Source: Dehalococcoidia bacterium
GTDB lineage: Bacteria; Chloroflexota; Dehalococcoidia; GIF9; AB-539-J10
Assembly (NCBI GenBank): GCA_034414555.1
Contig: DAOUMA010000008.1
Span: 11,039 to 75,038, forward strand
Direction of reading: 5' to 3'
DNA: 64,000 nucleotides
Shown: positions 5,698-41,731 of the stretch, in pieces
How positions within the stretch are numbered: position 1 is the first letter of the stretch
Layout of the letters: each line of letters starts with the position of its first letter
Notes under the pieces: generated by a model
What the model was told of the DNA's origin: nothing
What the model saw: only the letters and a program-made list of their open reading frames with translations
Databases searched by the model: none
Made by a program: the position numbers and the translations under genes

Positions 5698-6915
5698 TTA
5701 ATCAAAGGAGACCATCACCTTTATTGCCCGGCTCTTTCCTTTATGCACGTTTACTTCAATCATATCCTTGTATCTCTCCAGCGGGAATTCATGGGTCACC
5801 ATCTCATCAAGTTTAACCTTCTTTTTCTCAACAAGCTCGATAGCTATTTCAAAGGCGTGCCTCTTTTTCCCCTCAACAGTGTTATAGCCATAACAAAAGA
5901 CTCCCTTCACAGTCTGTAATTTGAGCCATAAAGGCGTTGGATCCAGCTTTATACCACTGCTAATACCCACAATGCTTAAAACACCGCCTGTTGCCATTAC
6001 CCTCATGCCATTATTCAATGTTTCCGAATTAGCTACAGTATCAAAAATCTTGGTGAACCCACCCATCGATATCCCTTTCCCCATCATTGGCTGGTAAGAG
6101 CGCGCTCCGGTTATCCTTTGGGTATGCGTAAAAATATCTCCTCCAGTGATAAGGTTATCTGCCCCTACCTTTGCGGCAAATTCAGCATGAAAACTCGAAG
6201 GTTCACTAACAGTGATATTGCAATCTATACCCAACGCCCTTATTGACTGAACAATAAGGGAGCCGATAACACCTCCCCCGACTATCAAGACCTTATCGTT
6301 TTTATCCGGCTTGTTATCAAGCACCGCTTGCAATGCTACCGCAAAAGGCTCTATCATCGCGCCCGATTCATGTGATGCCCCCTGAGGTAACTTAAAAACC
6401 TGGGACTTGTGTGCCACAAGATATGGGGCAAAACCACCATTGATATCATGACATATACCGGTAAACATGCCCGATGAAAAGCTTCCCTGGGCAAAGTTCT
6501 CGCAATTTCCCGGCCTTCCCATCTTACAACTTCGGCATTCAGGACTTATCCCTCTGGTAACGCAACCCAGATGAGGAGCAATAGTGACAATATCACCAGT
6601 ACTCAACCCCTTTACACTCTTGCCAACCTCAACAACCTCCCCACAAAGCTCATGACCCAGTATGCACGGAAACGATGTAAACGGAGTAGATGTCGGTGAT
6701 TCTTTTAACAAGATTAAGTTAAGGTCACTTCCACAAAAACCACAAAGAAAGGTCTTGATTTTGACCCAATCTGGGGAAGGCAACTTCGGCTCAGGGACAT
6801 CAACGAGCTTTACTGTTGCCAGGGGACCATCGTAATACACCCTCTTGCTTATAGCCCCCAGGGATTTCAAGGCAACAAATCTTGGAACTGAAACAAAGAA
6901 CTGCAGCGCTTTCAT
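5698..6915 (-). CDS. Zinc-dependent alcohol dehydrogenase (MDR family, threonine/sorbitol dehydrogenase-like)
   Basis: GHELCGEVVEVG catalytic-zinc motif, a Cys-rich structural-zinc loop (CVTRGISPECRSCKMGRPGNC) and a Rossmann GGGVIG motif. The ATG for MKALQF at 6915 has an AAGGAGGG RBS 5 nt upstream. The MIRRDK extension in the ORF track is the RBS read as codons. Confidence 0.75.
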   Translation of the reverse strand: MKALQFFVSVPRFVALKSLGAISKRVYYDGPLATVKLVDVPEPKLPSPDWVKIKTFLCGFCGSDLNLILLKESPTSTPFTSFPCILGHELCGEVVEVGKSVKGLSTGDIVTIAPHLGCVTRGISPECRSCKMGRPGNCENFAQGSFSSGMFTGICHDINGGFAPYLVAHKSQVFKLPQGASHESGAMIEPFAVALQAVLDNKPDKNDKVLIVGGGVIGSLIVQSIRALGIDCNITVSEPSSFHAEFAAKVGADNLITGGDIFTHTQRITGARSYQPMMGKGISMGGFTKIFDTVANSETLNNGMRVMATGGVLSIVGISSGIKLDPTPLWLKLQTVKGVFCYGYNTVEGKKRHAFEIAIELVEKKKVKLDEMVTHEFPLERYKDMIEVNVHKGKSRAIKVMVSFD

Positions 6916-9286: not shown

Positions 9287-10405
9287 TTAAATAATAGGCT
9301 TAGTCATCTCGAGGTCAGAATATGACGTAATTCCACGCTCCTTCATATAAGTGAAGAACTTGATTGGCTCCAGACAAGCTTCGGGACCATAGACCCCTCC
9401 TTTTGTGGTGAGAATTTCCTTACGGGCAAGCATCAAAGTGCCCACAGCTAGAGAAAGCCCGGTGGATTCCCGCATCTGGGCAATCCCGCAGCCTACCTCA
9501 TGCACTTCTTTACTGCCTTTCTCACCCCAGACATCAAGCCGAATCGCCCCCCATTCTGGCTCTTGAGGCTTACCCAGGTGTTCGAGGCTATTCAGTATCT
9601 TAGCTGCTGCTCGCTGACGCCGCTTACCCCCGAAAAATCCCAGCTTTGCGGGTAACACTAACCAGTTGGAGCCACGTCCAAAGCCCATAAACAAATTGAC
9701 TTCCTCTATCCCGGGGATAAAGAGGGGAATGGTGACTGGCTCACCATGCCCCATATTCCAGACCTTGATGGAGCCGAACCTAGGAAATTCAACCAGCCGC
9801 TCCTCGCTGCAGGCAGGCACCATCATCCGCTTTCCATCCCGCCAGATTGGAATTCTTCCCCCCATAATGAATAAGGTATGCTTGACCACCGCCTCACCTC
9901 CACCCGCTTTCAAAGGCATATAGACATTGATATCCGCTCGGCGAACCTTGTCCATCTGCTGGGCAAGATAACGAACTCCAATATTGGAGAGTCCCGGGCT
10001 GGCACCCAGGCCACTGATGACCGTGACTCCTTTTTCGCGAGCCTTTTCAGAGAATTGATTGATTACTTCATCTGCGGCGAGCCAATCATCACAGATGCTG
10101 GTATAATTAACCCCAGCATCAATCGCTGCCCGCACCAGTTTGGCCTCAAAGAGATAGAAAGGACCGAGGGCAGATGCGGCCACATCGTAACCCAGCATCG
10201 CATCTACCAGACCATTATGATCGTTGCCATCTACGGACTTGACATCCACCTTGGCTTTTGCCTTTTGGAGCCTGCCGGCAATCTGACGGGCTACTTCCAC
10301 ATTGTGATCTGCAATGGTAACTTGCTCAATCCCTTCAGCCTGTGCCAGCTCTTCAACTGCACGACTTCCCATATCGCCGGCGCCCCCCAGAACTATGATC
10401 TTCAT
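9287..10405 (-). CDS. Saccharopine dehydrogenase NADP-binding domain protein
   Basis: MKIIVLGGAGDMGSRAVEEL Rossmann N-terminus and saccharopine-dehydrogenase-like body. AAGGAGGG RBS before the ATG at 10405. First gene of a four-gene minus-strand operon (10405->5698). Confidence 0.7.
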   Translation of the reverse strand: MKIIVLGGAGDMGSRAVEELAQAEGIEQVTIADHNVEVARQIAGRLQKAKAKVDVKSVDGNDHNGLVDAMLGYDVAASALGPFYLFEAKLVRAAIDAGVNYTSICDDWLAADEVINQFSEKAREKGVTVISGLGASPGLSNIGVRYLAQQMDKVRRADINVYMPLKAGGGEAVVKHTLFIMGGRIPIWRDGKRMMVPACSEERLVEFPRFGSIKVWNMGHGEPVTIPLFIPGIEEVNLFMGFGRGSNWLVLPAKLGFFGGKRRQRAAAKILNSLEHLGKPQEPEWGAIRLDVWGEKGSKEVHEVGCGIAQMRESTGLSLAVGTLMLARKEILTTKGGVYGPEACLEPIKFFTYMKERGITSYSDLEMTKPII

Positions 10406-10546
10406 TGTGCCCTCCTTTAAACTTTTAGCTTTTAGAATCTTATTTTGCTTTATTTTAAGCGTAAATCACCTCAAAGGCAACTCTTAAAGCTAAGTGAACG
10501 CCAGGGCTTTCCGCCATTGCAATCCGGTATAGAAAGAAGCAAGTGG

Positions 10547-10576
10547 ATAGTGGTTCAAATCCACCATCGCCCACCA
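10547..10576 (+). other. tRNA 3'-end-like fragment (T-arm GGTTCAAATCC + acceptor 3' strand + CCA), no 5' half
   Basis: gtggTTCAAATccacc followed by atcgccc-a-CCA reads as a T-arm, 7-nt acceptor strand, discriminator and CCA. No complementary 5' acceptor strand (gggcgat) occurs within 100 nt upstream, so this is a fragment, not a gene. Confidence 0.35.
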
Positions 10577-10638
10577 TAGATATGAACTGAAAGCATCAGA
10601 GCTGATTGTTTAGCAAACCGCAAGTAGCCGAATAATAC

Positions 10639-10668
10639 TTGACACTAATTAGACATTTGTAATACAAT
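10639..10668 (+). promoter_or_regulatory. Sigma70-like promoter of brnT-brnA (TTGACA-18 nt-TACAAT)
   Basis: Perfect -35 TTGACA at 10639-10644 and -10 TACAAT at 10663-10668. The ATG at 10667 overlaps the -10 box, so it cannot be the start codon. Confidence 0.5.
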
Positions 10669-10687
10669 GTATTACAAAGAGGCTAGG

Positions 10688-10972
10688 TTGATTTTTATAA
10701 CATACCCATTAATTTGGGCTCAAGCAGTAGTGGATAAGATTTGGCAGAAACACCATGTTACTCCTGAAGAAGTTGAGGAGGCAATTTATGATGACAAACC
10801 GATTTGCCACAAAGGTACATCAAACTCATATTGTGTATATGGGCAAGCTGTATCTGGATGCTACCTATTCATAGTTTTGGGAAGGAGAGGCAGGAGAGCA
10901 CAATATAAAGTTATCACGGCTCGGGATATGCAGGATAGAGAAAAGCGATATTATCGCAAACATCGAAATTAA
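10688..10972 (+). CDS. brnT: BrnT-like (DUF497) type II toxin ribonuclease
   Basis: IWAQAVVDKIWQKHHVTPEEVEEAI matches the DUF497 N-terminal KHGVsfEEaeevF block. C-terminal KVITARDMQDREKRYY matches the RIISARkAtkkERkfY signature. Start moved to TTG at 10688 (AAAGAGG RBS at 10676-10682) because the annotated ATG lies inside the promoter -10. Confidence 0.55.
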   Translation: MIFITYPLIWAQAVVDKIWQKHHVTPEEVEEAIYDDKPICHKGTSNSYCVYGQAVSGCYLFIVLGRRGRRAQYKVITARDMQDREKRYYRKHRN

Positions 10973-10989
10973 GCGATATCAAAGTAGAG

Positions 10990-11550
10990 ATGCGAAAGGA
11001 GGGAAAAAGGAAAGTGGAGAAAAAGCTTATACCTCAGTTTGAGACAGAAGAGCAAGAAGCGGAGTATTGGGATTCACATAGTCCTCTCGATCTTGCCACT
11101 GAACCTAAGGCTCAAAAGGTGCGTGTGAGGGGTGTTAAAGACAGGCCGATAACAATTCGCCTTGATAGCAAAAGCCGCTCGAAGCTTGACAGATTAGCCG
11201 CTGAGCAAAGGCTTGGACCTTCTACCTTTGCTCGACTTATCCTTATGTCAGTAATTGAGCAGGGGAATAAGCTGCCAAAACACATAACTTTAGATGAGCT
11301 TAGGAAGATGCTGGAAGAGATTACGCCGCAATCGGTAAAGGATCGAGCTGACCTCCTTGCTAAAGAAGCAGCTATAGGTGATCCTGACAATCCGAGCTTT
11401 CTTATCCTCAACCAGTCTCAAATAAATGAATGGGGAGAACTTGGGTTGCAGGCTATCTGCACATTTCTTGAAATGTGTAATATTCATGTAATTACTCCTA
11501 AACATAGCGAATACAAGGAGGTAAAAACTCTTGTGCAGTCATACAAATAG
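10990..11550 (+). CDS. brnA: BrnA-like antitoxin (CopG/RHH) with ~85-aa C-terminal extension
   Basis: ETEEQEAEYWDSHSPLD followed by PITIRLDSKSRSKLDRLAAEQRLGPSTFARLIL matches the BrnA_antitoxin family pattern (E-E-FWDTHD ... itiRld ... YQtLI). Lies 18 nt downstream of brnT. Residues ~100-186 have no recognisable family. Confidence 0.55.
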   Translation: MRKEGKRKVEKKLIPQFETEEQEAEYWDSHSPLDLATEPKAQKVRVRGVKDRPITIRLDSKSRSKLDRLAAEQRLGPSTFARLILMSVIEQGNKLPKHITLDELRKMLEEITPQSVKDRADLLAKEAAIGDPDNPSFLILNQSQINEWGELGLQAICTFLEMCNIHVITPKHSEYKEVKTLVQSYK

Positions 11551-11568
11551 GATGGAGGTAGATTATCA

Positions 11569-11787
11569 ATGGCAATTCAATCCAGTCCCATTAAATTAGA
11601 AAAACGAACGCTACCAGGACAGCCTACTCAGTTTAGCCCTCCTCAGTTAGATGAGAGCTACTTCGAAAAATTGGCTGCCTTTGGCATTGCTTGTCTTGCA
11701 GCTGCGATTGTGGGTAAATTAACGATGACAATTTTATCCCCTCATCATAAAAGACAGTTACCAAATACCCTAGAGCAGCTAAAATAG
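11569..11787 (+). CDS. Hypothetical small protein with one predicted TM helix
   Basis: 72-aa ORF with a GGAGGT RBS 8 nt upstream of the ATG. Hydrophobic stretch AAFGIACLAAAIVGKL. No family recognised. Confidence 0.3.
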   Translation: MAIQSSPIKLEKRTLPGQPTQFSPPQLDESYFEKLAAFGIACLAAAIVGKLTMTILSPHHKRQLPNTLEQLK

Positions 11788-11815
11788 AACTGTAACGGCA
11801 TGATATTTAGGCAGA

Positions 11816-11827
11816 GGTTCAAATCCC
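11816..11827 (+). repeat. Second GGTTCAAATCC(C) tRNA T-arm-like fragment (imperfect direct repeat of 10552-10563)
   Basis: 12-nt ggttcaaatccc shares 11/12 with the tRNA-like fragment at 10552-10563. The flanks are only loosely similar and it does not fold as a T-arm. Confidence 0.2.
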
Positions 11828-12018
11828 ATAGCACCTACTATTCATACTGCTGCTCTTTTTAAGTCGTAAATTGGCAAGTTTCTGTAAATTTTGTTGTAGC
11901 TTTATGATGCTTATGGTATAAGACTACAGCCAAAGGTGAATTTCCTTTAGATGGCAGGCATTGTCACGCTTAAATCCTCTAGGTACACCAATAGAAAGGG
12001 AGATAATAGGAAGATTCT

Positions 12019-12993
12019 ATGAGAAAGAAATTTGTTGAATTGCTATTTGATGAATATGCTAAAAGTTTAACTGCGAGAAATCCCAAATTAAAGGATATGT
12101 TTTTATGCCCAATATGTATGCGCCCCTTTTACAGGGAATCCATAAATAACAAAGCTATTAGTATAGAACACATTCCACCACAAGCAATAGGAAGCTCAAT
12201 GAAAACGATAACATGCACAAAATGCAACAATGATATAGGTGCCAAGCTTCAGCCTCACATGAATAATTATGTTAGAGAAAAAGATTTATTGGCGGGCAGA
12301 GTACTAAAACCAATCCCAGCTAAAGTAGAAATTAATGGACGCACAATTCATACACGCATTACAGAGAATAAAGGGGGAGGCAATTGGACTGGGGTTAGTG
12401 TGAAAACTCAGTTGCCACCAGATATATGGCCTGAAAATGCTAAAAAATACGTAGGGAAAAAGGCCATCATTTCTTTGCAGATACCGGCTTCAAAAGAGAT
12501 TGTAGATGCAGCTTATTTGCATTCTACATATTTAGCATTATTTAGCTTATTAGGATATCCGTACATAATGCAGCCGTTTCTTGATCCGATAAGGAAAAAG
12601 ATTAATGATTACTCGTTGAAAAAAGGTATCGCACATAGGTTATTAATACCTAAGTTATTAGCTCCTAAATTCTTCCTAGACCCTAGAGACCGCAGAGTTG
12701 AAGTTGCGCTAATTTGGAATCGGAAAAAGATAGATATAAGCTGCCTTGGTGTGATAATAGCAGGTGAGATAGTATTGATGCCTTTCATAAGTGAATATTA
12801 CAAAGATATATATTTGGAGTTTTCATCATATCTGACTAATCTTCAAAAAGGTGTTAAGAGAAAGCTTCCATTTGGGGTTACCCCGTTAGAGATGCACCCA
12901 GCTTTAAAATACTCTATAGCTTATACATTTGAAGAGGGAAAAGAATTAGATGGTATGAAATCTCTCAGGTTAGTACCTCTGAAAGAAACTTAA
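12019..12993 (+). CDS. HNH (His-Me finger) nuclease-motif protein with zinc ribbon and uncharacterised C-terminal domain
   Basis: CPICMRPF ... ISIEHIPPQAIGSSMKTITCTKCNN fits the HNH pattern CxxC ... (D/E)HIxP ... CxxCN. The remaining ~230 aa have no recognisable motifs. The gene is visibly AT-rich (~35% GC) against ~50% flanks. Confidence 0.5.
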   Translation: MRKKFVELLFDEYAKSLTARNPKLKDMFLCPICMRPFYRESINNKAISIEHIPPQAIGSSMKTITCTKCNNDIGAKLQPHMNNYVREKDLLAGRVLKPIPAKVEINGRTIHTRITENKGGGNWTGVSVKTQLPPDIWPENAKKYVGKKAIISLQIPASKEIVDAAYLHSTYLALFSLLGYPYIMQPFLDPIRKKINDYSLKKGIAHRLLIPKLLAPKFFLDPRDRRVEVALIWNRKKIDISCLGVIIAGEIVLMPFISEYYKDIYLEFSSYLTNLQKGVKRKLPFGVTPLEMHPALKYSIAYTFEEGKELDGMKSLRLVPLKET

Positions 12994-13013
12994 ATCACCC
13001 TACCATCTACCTT

Positions 13014-13380
13014 AAAAAGCAAGAATATCCGGGGAAAGAAGCGGCTTACTTAAGCGCCAGGGAATCCTGAGCATTATTGCAGGAGCTGCCCAAGCAATTA
13101 TTGGCGGAATTATAACCGTTATATCAGGATTTAATATGTCTCCGCCTCCCAAGCCTTCCCGATTTTGGAGACCGGCTTAGCATCATAGGGATGATTCCGA
13201 CCGTAGCGGTTATTATTGGGTTAGCATTATAGTATTGGGCATAATAGCCATGATCAGCGGCATAGCGGCGATGAAAAGAAGCAGGTTCGGACTAGCTCTA
13301 GCTGGAGCCATCAGTGCCCTGCTATCAGGCACCCTAGGGATGCTGGCAGTTATCTTTGTGTCCTTGGCGGAGGGAGAGCT
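13014..13380 (+). pseudogene. Degraded multi-TM membrane protein gene (start-less, frame-broken fragments)
   Basis: Two hydrophobic Gly/Ala-rich reading-frame fragments in different frames (..GILSIIAGAAQAIIGGIITVISGFNMSPPPKPSRFWRPA* and ..LGIIAMISGIAAMKRSRFGLALAGAISALLSGTLGMLAVIFVSLAEGEL*). Neither has an upstream start codon or RBS. Confidence 0.2.
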
Positions 13381-13424
13381 TTAATAAGAATCAGCCCTCC
13401 CGAAGCATAGTTTTTGGCAATCAG

Positions 13425-13589
13425 CTAAAAGTAAGTGATAATTGCCAGTATACCCCACAGGATAAGCCAGATGCCCACCAGATAATTGAGTATCTTGGGG
13501 AAGATCATCACTATTATGCCGAAAACCAGACTAGCTATTCCGACAATTAAACCTACGCTGCCCTGCATAATAGCCAATATAGTAGCCAT
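13425..13589 (-). CDS. DUF3096-like small membrane protein (54 aa)
   Basis: Read by eye (below the ORF-track size cutoff): MATILAIMQGSVGLIVGIASLVFGIIVMIFPKILNYLVGIWLILWGILAIITYF. AGGAGGTGA RBS 9 nt upstream. Two-TM pattern with a PxxLxYxVG core as in DUF3096. Confidence 0.45.
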   Translation of the reverse strand: MATILAIMQGSVGLIVGIASLVFGIIVMIFPKILNYLVGIWLILWGILAIITYF

Positions 13590-13651
13590 AAGCTATCACC
13601 TCCTATATTTATTTAATGCCGAGCATTATATACCACATAAGATTGGGGGCA

Positions 13652-37695: not shown

Positions 37696-39639
<1,944 letters not shown>

Positions 39640-40405: not shown

Positions 40406-41731
40406 TTATTGATAAAAATTATCAATTTTTTGTTTAATTTCATTAATCTGCCTGTTCAGCTTAGAATTAGCATTCAATTCACTAGTTATTTTTTTATAGC
40501 CATAGAGTATTGTGGCATGATTCCTCTTACCCAATACTTTGCTAATCTCGACGAAGGAGTAATTCCCCTCCTCTCGCAGAAGATATGCTGCAATTTGGCG
40601 CGCTAAAGAAGTCTCCTTATCCCTCTTTCTGCCTAGCAATTGGTCTAGCGGACAATTAAAATAATCGGCTACTGTTTGCACTATTAGTTTACCATCATCA
40701 ATGCTTTTATTAGGTGTTAGTAATTTGGTGATTATTTGTGGAGTTAAGCTAAGTCCGGTTAACTTGGTATAGGCATCGAGGTATGTTAGAGCGCCTTCAA
40801 GCTGGTAAACGTTATCCTGTATCTTCTGTGCGATAAATCGCAGCGTCTCTTCAATGATGGGGAGTCTCTTCTCTCTTGATTTAGCTTGCAGTATAGCTAA
40901 GCGTGTTTCAAAATCGAGGGGGTTAATTTGAGTAACAAGACCGCATTCCAGGTGTGACCTTAGCCTGCTGCTGATTAAGGACATCTCTTTAGGAGCGCGG
41001 TCAGCAGCGATCACGATCTGGCAATTATTATGGTAAAGCTCGTTGAAGGTGTGAAAGAAAAATTGTTGAGTCTGCTTTTTATTATTTAGCAGTTGAAAAT
41101 CATCAAAAAGTAATATATTTACCGGAGTGAATTTGCTTCGGAAACGGGCTACATCGTTTTGCTTGACTGCGAGCACAAATTCATTGGTGAATTGGTCGGC
41201 GGAGGAGTAAACCACGTTCAATCCCCTTTCTAGCGCAGCATGTCCGATAGCATGTAATAAGTGAGTCTTGCCCTGACCGGTGTTTCCGTGAATGATGAGT
41301 GGATTATAGACCAGCGATGGTTTCTCACTTACCTCTGTTGCGGCAGCATAAGCAAGGCGGTTACACTCACCCACCACAAAGCTGGTAAAAGTGTATTTCG
41401 GGTTAAATTGGTAGGTTTTTATCTTGGTGCTTATTCCTCCATCGCTCTGCAATGGCTTCGTGCTAGGTAGCGTTGGCTGCTGTACCACGAATTGGACCTC
41501 TAAGTTTTTCCCTAAGATAATAGTAAGGGTCTTCTTTATCAATGAATAAAAGCGTTTTGTAAGACACTCCGCGACGAAAGTATTGGGGACGCTGACGACG
41601 AAGACGTCGGTTTCATAATTCATGCCCGCGCTATCTCTAAGCCAGGTATCATAGTTTATTCTGTTAACCTGGAGTTGAAGCTCTCCTAAAGCTCTTGCCC
41701 AGGTCTCTTTTGCCGAAAAAGGTTCACTCAT
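40406..41731 (-). CDS. dnaA: Chromosomal replication initiator protein DnaA
   Basis: AAA+ Walker A IHGNTGQGKTHLLHAIG, sensor motifs and a C-terminal DnaA-box-binding domain at 441 aa. Confidence 0.9.
   Translation of the reverse strand: MSEPFSAKETWARALGELQLQVNRINYDTWLRDSAGMNYETDVFVVSVPNTFVAECLTKRFYSLIKKTLTIILGKNLEVQFVVQQPTLPSTKPLQSDGGISTKIKTYQFNPKYTFTSFVVGECNRLAYAAATEVSEKPSLVYNPLIIHGNTGQGKTHLLHAIGHAALERGLNVVYSSADQFTNEFVLAVKQNDVARFRSKFTPVNILLFDDFQLLNNKKQTQQFFFHTFNELYHNNCQIVIAADRAPKEMSLISSRLRSHLECGLVTQINPLDFETRLAILQAKSREKRLPIIEETLRFIAQKIQDNVYQLEGALTYLDAYTKLTGLSLTPQIITKLLTPNKSIDDGKLIVQTVADYFNCPLDQLLGRKRDKETSLARQIAAYLLREEGNYSFVEISKVLGKRNHATILYGYKKITSELNANSKLNRQINEIKQKIDNFYQ

Follow-up and report, generated by a model that had tools for sequence, protein, structure and literature searches.

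What kind of locus is the AT-rich stretch that lies some 10.5 kb into a 64-kb piece of a Dehalococcoidia genome (64,000 nucleotides (nt) of contig DAOUMA010000008.1, assembly GCA_034414555.1, the whole of which is called the window here)? A preliminary description saw in it a decayed, horizontally acquired candidate defence locus of about 3 kb, in which a BrnT/BrnA toxin-antitoxin (TA) pair, a 72-amino-acid (aa) membrane open reading frame (ORF) and a 324-aa HNH nuclease would belong together. Our analysis identified a smaller element: positions 10547 to about 12996 form a 2.45-kb AT-rich islet of two small exchangeable cassettes at the relic of a tRNA-Val gene. We give a probability of roughly 0.7 to the full reading, namely a tandem islet at a tRNA-Val(UAC) relic, with a self-regulated TA cassette and a solitary nuclease cassette that are swapped at tRNA-derived repeats. 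The main value of the work is a correction, as the supposed four-part defence locus turns out to be two ordinary kinds of accessory cassette at a tRNA relic. The observation is real, though in a smaller and more ordinary form than first proposed: a mobile islet of a broadly familiar kind.

Composition, junctions and occurrence in relatives

The islet (10547-12997) has a GC content of 0.388 against 0.474 in the remainder of the window, and none of 1133 equal-length sliding windows elsewhere was as low (z = -3.5); along the profile, values of ~0.47-0.53 in the flanks fall to 0.35-0.44 across ~10.4-13.0 kb. Its strand-symmetrised tetranucleotide distance was the highest of 228 windows (z = 5.4), and the GC content at third codon positions (GC3) of its four genes is 0.31-0.40 versus 0.45-0.54 in the flanking genes. 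The GC drop of the preliminary description is confirmed by the sliding-window and tetranucleotide measures, and it is the lowest of the window.

Relatives were collected by a one-genome-per-species scan with the flanking saccharopine-dehydrogenase protein, which returned Dehalococcoidia metagenome-assembled genomes; the loci compared are designated here by L-numbers. L003 and L009 carry a saccharopine-dehydrogenase 91-92% identical to that of the window, and none of the four islet genes is present in them: some ~200-450 bp beyond the saccharopine-dehydrogenase gene come a membrane gene, intact and coding for 125 aa, then DUF3096, radical SAM, ROK and iPGM. Between the same flanks as in the window, L047 and L048 hold all four islet genes, and L005 has the first three at the same locus, followed by different cargo. 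This presence/absence polymorphism between the saccharopine-dehydrogenase and radical SAM/ROK genes, seen in the synteny comparison, supports the horizontal acquisition at a tRNA scar that had been suspected.

Protein identities to the window point in the same direction. In the distant L032, ROK and iPGM are 71% and 68% identical, and HNH, BrnT and BrnA are 87%, 92% and 74% identical; in the closer L047 the two core proteins reach 89% and 84%, and the three islet proteins 81%, 92% and 72%. The incongruence of the islet proteins with the core genome indicates that the cassettes would have been exchanged horizontally between Dehalococcoidia lineages. No integrase or transposase was found among the four islet proteins by Pfam and NCBIfam assignments, as had been stated, and the genes called in the array loci L032, L038, L047 and L071 matched no integrase family of Pfam. 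The sole integrase family seen was Phage_int_SAM_4, as a 91-aa fragment in L062 that lies ~5 kb away from a distant HNH relative.

Both junctions could be located. On the left, the core side is homologous in the empty sites L003 and L009 and in the islet-bearing L048 and L005, and homology to the empty sites stops after GCAAGTGG at 10546. On the right, the match to the HNH cassette of L032 ends ~2 nt past the HNH stop codon, and this junction is the same in the window and in L047; ~40 nt of empty-site sequence, the tRNA-Val anticodon arm included, are gone at the right junction of the window. The right edge had been placed at 13650, beyond two genes that we assign to the core (see below). A T-loop-like TTAAAT at the HNH stop codon was considered as a third att copy and rejected, because it belongs to the HNH gene in L032 too.

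Repeats derived from a tRNA-Val gene

The fragment of a tRNA 3′ end at the left edge (10549-10576; T-arm, acceptor strand and CCA) was correctly recognised at the outset, and it comes from tRNA-Val(UAC). A second copy of it, between orf72 and the HNH gene, was overlooked. A repeat finder pairs 10549-10582 with 11813-11846 as direct repeat D2, and a mismatch-tolerant scan with the 28-mer returned exactly 2 sites in the 64 kb, compared to 0.1 in shuffled sequence. The first 28-mer has 5 substitutions relative to the L038/L059 consensus, and both match the T-arm-to-CCA part of genuine tRNA-Val(tac) and tRNA-Val(cac) genes in the relative L011. Judged by sequence, both are derived from the 3′ end of tRNA-Val(UAC). 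Rfam at E <= 10 gave nothing relevant over 9.8-14.2 kb, and a hidden intact or permuted tRNA was rejected, since the folds of both tRNA-like regions are no more stable than shuffles.

The same fragments accompany the same genes elsewhere. L032 has three tRNA-derived copies flanking both cassettes: ahead of BrnT a tRNA-Val minus its first ~9 nt; then, separating the small ORF from HNH, a copy that runs from the T-arm to CCA; and, ~190 nt past HNH, one that runs from the anticodon arm to CCA. This right-hand copy is degenerate or truncated in the window, and it is present in L032 and in L059, where a near-full-length pseudo-tRNA-Val(TAC) follows an HNH pseudogene. In L038 and L071, the BrnT-BrnA-small ORF trio is found in arrays downstream of intact tRNA-Val(tac) genes: the canonical cluster of tRNA-Val(cac), a membrane gene, tRNA-Leu, tRNA-Arg and tRNA-Val(tac) is followed in L071 by a ~6-kb island, a second tRNA-Val(tac), the trio and the 28-mer, and in L038 by a 301-aa ORF, a tRNA 3′ remnant, the trio and a perfect 28-mer. 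At the empty sites the tRNA-Val gene is decayed, with an anticodon-arm match of 20/20 in L009 and 19/20 in L003, and the remnant is preceded by a perfect TTGACA-17-TACAAT. From this pattern across the window and related loci we read the window locus as the relic of a tRNA-Val gene with small units stacked on it.

The repeat is also the place where the loci part. After the small ORF, homology among all five trio-bearing loci compared extends to where tRNA-derived fragment 2 ends and is then lost (alignment A6); past this fragment comes the HNH cassette in the window, L032 and L047, and other DNA, different in each, in L005 and L038.

Some further observations concern the tRNA relics. The perfect TTGACA-17-TACAAT 5′ of the tRNA-Val pseudogene lies at ~9900-9930 (reverse) in L003, ~9650-9690 in L009, ~1470-1500 in L005 and ~2870-2900 in L048, and it points toward the membrane gene, or toward the islet if present; in the window (10495-10523) both hexamers are mutated (TGAACG / TGCAAT), paralleling the decay of the membrane gene. 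The 301-aa ORF of L038 (3891-4796) has no Pfam match and forms its own cassette between tRNA-Val(tac) and the tRNA 3′ remnant, a further uncharacterised cargo gene of tRNA-Val arrays. In L042, at 6488-6520, 5′ of a trio lying in mnmA-rsfS context, a fragment resembles the D-arm and anticodon arm of another tRNA (GGTAGAGCGCCAGTCTTGCAAGGCTGACG), which hints that the trio settles at other tRNA relics too.

The putative toxin-antitoxin cassette

Cassette 1 starts with the TTGACA/TACAAT promoter, which is present as described (Table 1), and a perfect palindrome over its -10 box is presumed to be the BrnA operator. An equivalent promoter and repeat lie 5′ of the trio in L032, L038, L039, L042, L068 and L071; the repeat differs in sequence in L039 (TGTGTTAC..GTAACACA), and in L038 it is a direct repeat.

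Regarding the BrnT-BrnA pair, the ORFs and the long BrnA are there, yet both matches fall below Pfam cut-offs. The BrnT start had been put at an ATG overlapping the -10 box. Identical public contigs call it at TTG 10688, and this start fits because ATG 10667 falls within the -10 hexamer. BrnT aligns with Pfam PF04365 at E = 1.7e-6, over profile positions 7-77 of 77. For BrnA, the same public contigs call GTG 11014, which is probably the true start; the alternative ATG 10990 would give 186 aa. An AF2 monomer model has helices at 52-64 and 69-83, compatible with a ribbon-helix-helix (RHH) fold, some homologues have a precomputed PF12441 match, and at least 175 clusters, at 53-100% identity, span the full length of the long BrnA. 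The pair has toxin-first order, a spacing of 41 nt and the palindrome over its own promoter.

The third gene, orf72, has homologues 3′ of BrnA in L005, L032, L038, L042, L047, L068 and L071, with the conserved core DExYFEKLAAFGxACLAAAIVGKL and a ratio of non-synonymous to synonymous substitution (dN/dS) of 0.23-0.66; nothing matches it in Pfam, NCBIfam or PADLOC. The module was first taken to be decayed. All four genes are intact, and what is decayed is the att/tRNA scaffold and the core membrane gene.

In the account of PMC11980606, citing Heaton 2012, BrnT is a RelE-fold RNase encoded toxin-first, and BrnA represses the operon through a C-terminal RHH. We read cassette 1 as a putative autoregulated addiction module of BrnTA type with two undescribed additions, either of which, the extra domain of BrnA or the small protein, might modulate the antitoxin.

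The HNH nuclease cassette

The 324-aa HNH protein, like the 72-aa ORF, is present as first described, and its HNH_5 match lies above the gathering score. At its N-terminus is a zinc-bound His-Me finger (C30, C33, E50-H51, C66, C69, N70) with the beta-beta-alpha-metal core. Among 17 close homologues conservation runs over the whole length, and E50, H51, C66, C69, N70 and N71 are invariant. For the C-terminal region of ~230 aa, no relative turned up in Pfam, NCBIfam and PADLOC, nor in PDB, which was searched by sequence and fold. A second, PD-(D/E)xK site in this region was rejected, as inspection of alignment A1 alone revealed no conserved (D/E)xK.

An exhaustive profile search collected 2,460 representatives at E <= 0.001 (1,502 at E <= 1e-10), mostly of 290-330 aa, with alignments covering ~1-205 or beyond and the common motif CPxC...(S/T)xEH...TCxxCN. 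All ten wider members tested have HNH_5 (7/10 above gathering score) and little else; NCBIfam returned only sub-threshold IscB HNH matches, in two distant members, and the source databases give the wider members no product name. The family is missing from 50,697 phage records and from IMG/VR, and nearly missing from plasmids. Viral contig scans with two att patterns, the HNH profile and the BrnA profile were empty, as was tblastn against phages. That these collections lack the family is no argument either way on a defence role.

A metagenome scan with the narrower alignment A1 contributed a few contexts. Relatives of ~45% identity lie next to PLD-SNF2 helicase and SLFN/AlbA genes (L035/36), to type IIG restriction-modification, OLD-like ATPase-TOPRIM and PDDEXK genes (L037, with the type IIG gene 3 kb away), to a Pif1-WYL helicase (L056), to NYN-LOTUS and RNase H-like genes (L057), or to mfd and a B12-radical SAM gene (L054), and TA genes are among the neighbours of the family. 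The suspected defence role has in its favour the restriction, OLD-family, Schlafen/AlbA, helicase and TA genes around the more distant HNH relatives; the PADLOC check assigned no known defence family. With no conserved partner and no methyltransferase, a stand-alone restriction-like nuclease is the most economical explanation: judging from context, the HNH protein most likely acts alone against foreign DNA, and its C-terminal region presumably supplies target recognition or regulation.

Two further members were seen beside TA genes. On a Mucilaginibacter plasmid (L045, NZ_CP155080.1, 672-2400) a distant member, 23% identical, comes directly after an unrelated RelE/HigA pair, and on a metagenome contig (L062, 4466-7877) another is flanked by antitoxin genes of the MazE and HicB types and has a weak SIR2_2-like neighbour; this closeness to TA genes recurs, and the partners differ each time. 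In L059 (123-1060) a 74%-identical copy has become a pseudogene, start lost and frame-shifted, beside a repeat-rich stretch, which shows that cassettes also decay in place.

Two other origins of the nuclease were weighed. It could be the orphaned endonuclease of a decayed or split restriction-modification system, or a type IV-like enzyme that depends on DNA modification; either way it would be an ordinary restriction-type protein and no new family. HNH sites are found in many type II and type IV enzymes (PMC5714182), the protein is solitary, of ~300 aa, with a private C-terminal region that could read DNA, and the relative in L037 neighbours a type IIG enzyme. Yet no methyltransferase ORF occurs in the window from 9.3 to 16.9 kb and none is adjacent in ~20 HNH homologue contexts, neither PADLOC nor NCBIfam (libraries that we assume, from their stated scope, to cover restriction enzymes) gave a match, and the C-terminal region is unmatched in PDB by sequence and fold, so that no likeness to a known reader domain emerged. 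This origin we consider rather unlikely.

Alternatively, the nuclease could act selfishly as a homing-type endonuclease: it would cut an empty target such as the tRNA-Val region, spread its own cassette by repair copying and have no part in host defence. A free-standing HNH gene is the classic form of a homing endonuclease (group 1 in the His-Me finger scheme of PMC5714182), no integrase is present, and a short single-gene cassette with tRNA-Val copies at its bounds (L032, L059) and a phylogeny incongruent with the core would suit such behaviour. Against this, the phage and IMG/VR collections, which are rich in homing HNH genes, yielded no member of the family, its 45%-identical relatives occupy unrelated sites without tRNA-Val fragments, the adjoining trio cassette is bounded likewise without encoding a nuclease, and the extra 230 aa are unlike any known DNA-binding module of homing endonucleases. 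The chances of a homing origin appear to us slim.

One system or two cassettes

Could BrnT, BrnA, orf72 and HNH still form one multi-component abortive-infection or defence system, in which the TA pair or the membrane peptide senses infection and HNH is the effector? In the window, in L032/L033 and in L047-L052 the four genes stand side by side in one orientation, and the TA genes beside the two distant HNH members in L045 and L062 also count in its favour. But every four-gene occurrence has the same ROK-iPGM right flank, so that the adjacency counts as one inherited arrangement.

Each part also occurs without the other. The trio lacks HNH in at least 6 contexts: L005, L038, L039-41 (beside an insertion sequence and rpoB, with an unrelated small membrane ORF replacing orf72), L042/43 (between mnmA and rsfS), L068-70 (between rpiB and thi4) and L071. 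HNH relatives lack the trio in at least 6 others (L035, L037, L054, L056, L057, L059). The spacer between trio and HNH is 231 nt long and holds the tRNA-derived repeat, at which homology breaks, and a separate promoter-like site; and at least 175 long-BrnA clusters face only 7 close HNH clusters. The reading of the TA pair, membrane ORF and nuclease as a single four-gene system is not supported, and we accord it little credence.

That nothing was acquired at all, with the low GC native and the tRNA-like fragments chance matches, is hardly credible: promoter-like sites are indeed not enriched (8 found vs 9.3 expected) and the RNA folds of the fragments are unremarkable, but the compositional extremes, the empty sites of relatives whose flanking gene is 92% identical, the two 28-mer matches where 0.1 were expected and the recurrence of the same fragments around the same cassettes beside real tRNA-Val genes all contradict it.

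Proposed origin of the islet

We propose that tandem insertion at a tRNA-Val(UAC) gene, now a relic, would have left two cassettes that can be exchanged independently, with a ~28-nt copy of the tRNA's T-arm-to-CCA end at the head of each. In cassette 1, the BrnT-like protein is predicted to act as a RelE-fold RNase toxin, and the BrnA-like antitoxin, with its predicted RHH and extra C-terminal domain, would presumably repress the promoter via the palindrome over the -10 box. The cassette would most likely serve as an addiction or stabilisation module for the islet, and an abortive-infection role is possible. Swapping of cassettes at the tRNA-derived repeats could be the work of a recombinase whose gene lies outside the islet, or of homologous recombination acting on the repeats themselves. 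The data show the boundaries, the polymorphism, the composition, the modularity, the tRNA-Val origin of the repeats and the domain assignments; the activities of toxin and nuclease, the nuclease target, the operator function, a defence role and the mechanism of recombination are inferred.

Several observations weigh against this proposal. No integrase or recombinase was found in the islet or in any of the ~20 related contexts examined, and ARAGORN found no intact tRNA or transfer-messenger RNA (tmRNA) in the 64-kb window. The left junction lies in a D-loop-like remnant and not in a clean attB, and with the ~40 nt of empty-site sequence gone on the right, the event may have been an insertion with loss of these nucleotides, or a deletion in the "empty" lineages. 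BrnT scores 28.6 bits, under the PF04365 gathering score of 34.5 bits (all BrnTs of the clade that were tested are sub-threshold too, at 30.2-33.7 bits), and phmmer gave it no match to a solved BrnT chain; BrnA matches PF12441 weakly (E = 0.008, 17.3 bits vs the curated 28). PADLOC-DB v2 had no match for the four islet proteins at E <= 1, nor for ten wider HNH-family members at E <= 0.01, NCBIfam and a PDB search by sequence yielded nothing useful for the four, and some HNH relatives lie in ordinary metabolic neighbourhoods, as in L054.

Neighbouring genes and feature coordinates

The coordinates of the islet and its surroundings are collected in Table 1.

Table 1. Features of the islet and its borders, in window positions
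Feature	Position	Strand	Remarks
Core side of left junction: decayed promoter and 5′ remnant of tRNA-Val pseudogene	10495..10546	+	alignment A3
Left islet end: tRNA-Val(UAC)-derived att-like fragment 1 (T-arm, acceptor 3′ strand, CCA)	10547..10576	+	
Promoter TTGACA-18-TACAAT	10639-10668	+	11/12 consensus matches, best in region
Perfect 21-nt palindrome TTGTAATACA-A-TGTATTACAA	10657-10677	+	overlaps promoter -10 box
BrnT-like toxin, 94 aa	10688..10972	+	TTG start after AAAGAGG; PF04365
Long BrnA-like antitoxin, 178 aa	11014..11550	+	BrnA/CopG N-terminal part, predicted RHH and conserved ~85-aa C-terminal domain
orf72, small hydrophobic protein, third gene	11569..11787	+	63-72-aa homologues after BrnA elsewhere
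tRNA-Val-derived att-like fragment 2, cassette boundary	11813..11840	+	
Solitary HNH_5 nuclease, 324 aa	12019..12993	+	Pfam HNH_5 (PF14279) 33.1 bits, gathering score 27.5
Right junction	12996..13024	+	alignment A2; remnant of pseudo-tRNA acceptor strand/leader
Core membrane-protein gene, pseudogene here, not islet cargo	13025..13384	+	
DUF3096 micro-protein, 54 aa, intact core gene, not islet cargo	13425..13589	-	PF11295 33.5 bits, gathering score 23.3

The membrane-protein fragments and the DUF3096 ORF at the right were rightly noticed, and the membrane gene is indeed frame-broken; DUF3096 is intact, and neither is islet cargo. Both are kept beside the same flanks in the islet-less L003 and L009, and are therefore core genes, DUF3096 being 82-83% identical there. 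In the membrane pseudogene the start codon has changed (ATG->ATA at 13025), 2 nt are deleted near 13145 and 1 nt near 13217, and a stop lies in frame. Since L003, L009 and also the islet-bearing L047 have an intact copy (121-125 aa), its decay is lineage-specific. This small multi-pass membrane gene follows the tRNA-Val gene in several relatives (L038 3139-3522, L071 120-232), and in L071 it is truncated as well.

The spacer between the saccharopine-dehydrogenase gene and the promoter bears differing 200-250-bp insertions in L005 (1530-1760), L009 (9700-9910) and L048 (alignment A3, columns 100-370), which have the motif "TAGCGACGAAGCAATCTC" in common and resemble miniature repeat elements; the intergenic region 3′ of the saccharopine-dehydrogenase gene is an insertion hot spot. 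Farther away, gyrB (37717-39639, +), a cytidylyltransferase-like gene and dnaA (40406-41731, -) lie in the second-lowest-GC stretch (39.6-42.0 kb, GC 0.417), and the chromosomal origin of replication probably falls within the window, at a distance of ~27 kb from the islet.

Comparison with known systems

With integron cassette arrays the islet shares very short, mostly one-gene units that are separated by recombination sites and exchanged between lineages, and integron cassettes are rich in TA and endonuclease genes, PF14279 included (PMC7370490). In contrast to integrons, there is no IntI and there are no attC hairpins here, the boundaries are direct tRNA-derived repeats, and cassette 1 has its own promoter. 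A bolder reading would make the 28-nt tRNA-Val(UAC) repeats, in this group of Dehalococcoidia, the joints of an integron-like shuffling of 1-3-gene units that needs no resident integrase, carrying two undescribed cargo units: a tripartite BrnT/long-BrnA/membrane-peptide module, and a new single-gene HNH defence family (~2,500 clusters, with a C-terminal fold not in PDB). We regard this as unlikely.

The nuclease is closest to the HNH_5 His-Me finger enzymes (groups 1 and 8, PMC5714182, with the HNH domains of Cas9 and CBASS Cap5), and it differs from them by ~230 extra residues without a relative in sequence or fold; it also lacks a guide RNA, SAVED, RuvC or other partner domain, and a conserved neighbour. 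For the PF14279-only group 8, Jablonska et al. 2017 (PMC5714182) give no function in their Table 1 and no discussion in the text. The family of ~2,460 clusters, of ~300 aa, with a C-terminal two-thirds that has no recognisable relative, and with variable neighbourhoods rich in defence and TA genes and no fixed partner, is a lead in its own right and a cheap single-gene candidate for phage-challenge screens.

To BrnT/BrnA as described in 2012 (via the account in PMC11980606) cassette 1 is alike in its toxin-first order, in BrnT similarity across the whole PF04365 profile, in an antitoxin with a BrnA-type acidic N-terminus followed by a predicted RHH, and in a promoter palindrome that fits autoregulation. 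The differences are an antitoxin of roughly double the length, ending in a conserved ~85-aa domain of unassigned fold, a conserved third gene for a 62-72-aa hydrophobic protein, and scores below the Pfam cut-offs. This BrnTA family, with its doubled antitoxin and conserved small hydrophobic third protein, is a second lead, for which we found no published description.

The closest counterparts are the ssrA islands of Dehalococcoides, a member of the same bacterial class, which are tandem, bounded by 20-bp repeats of the tmRNA 3′ end and inserted at the T-loop (McMurdie et al. 2011, PMC3146451). As in the window, tandem units lie 3′ of a tRNA or tmRNA gene, each delimited by a short direct repeat taken from the 3′ end of that gene, and the non-core cargo is strain-variable, with a phylogeny discordant with the core (PMC3146451). 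Of the ssrA islands, 16/31 have an integration module (PMC3146451), whereas no serine-recombinase module was seen in any locus here. In the window, moreover, the tRNA is a relic and one junction is imprecise, the target is tRNA-Val(UAC), and the units measure ~1.2 kb with 1-3 genes, instead of ~10 kb or more. The stacking and swapping of very small cassettes at tRNA-Val in uncultured Dehalococcoidia would thus extend the ssrA-island mechanism of Dehalococcoides.

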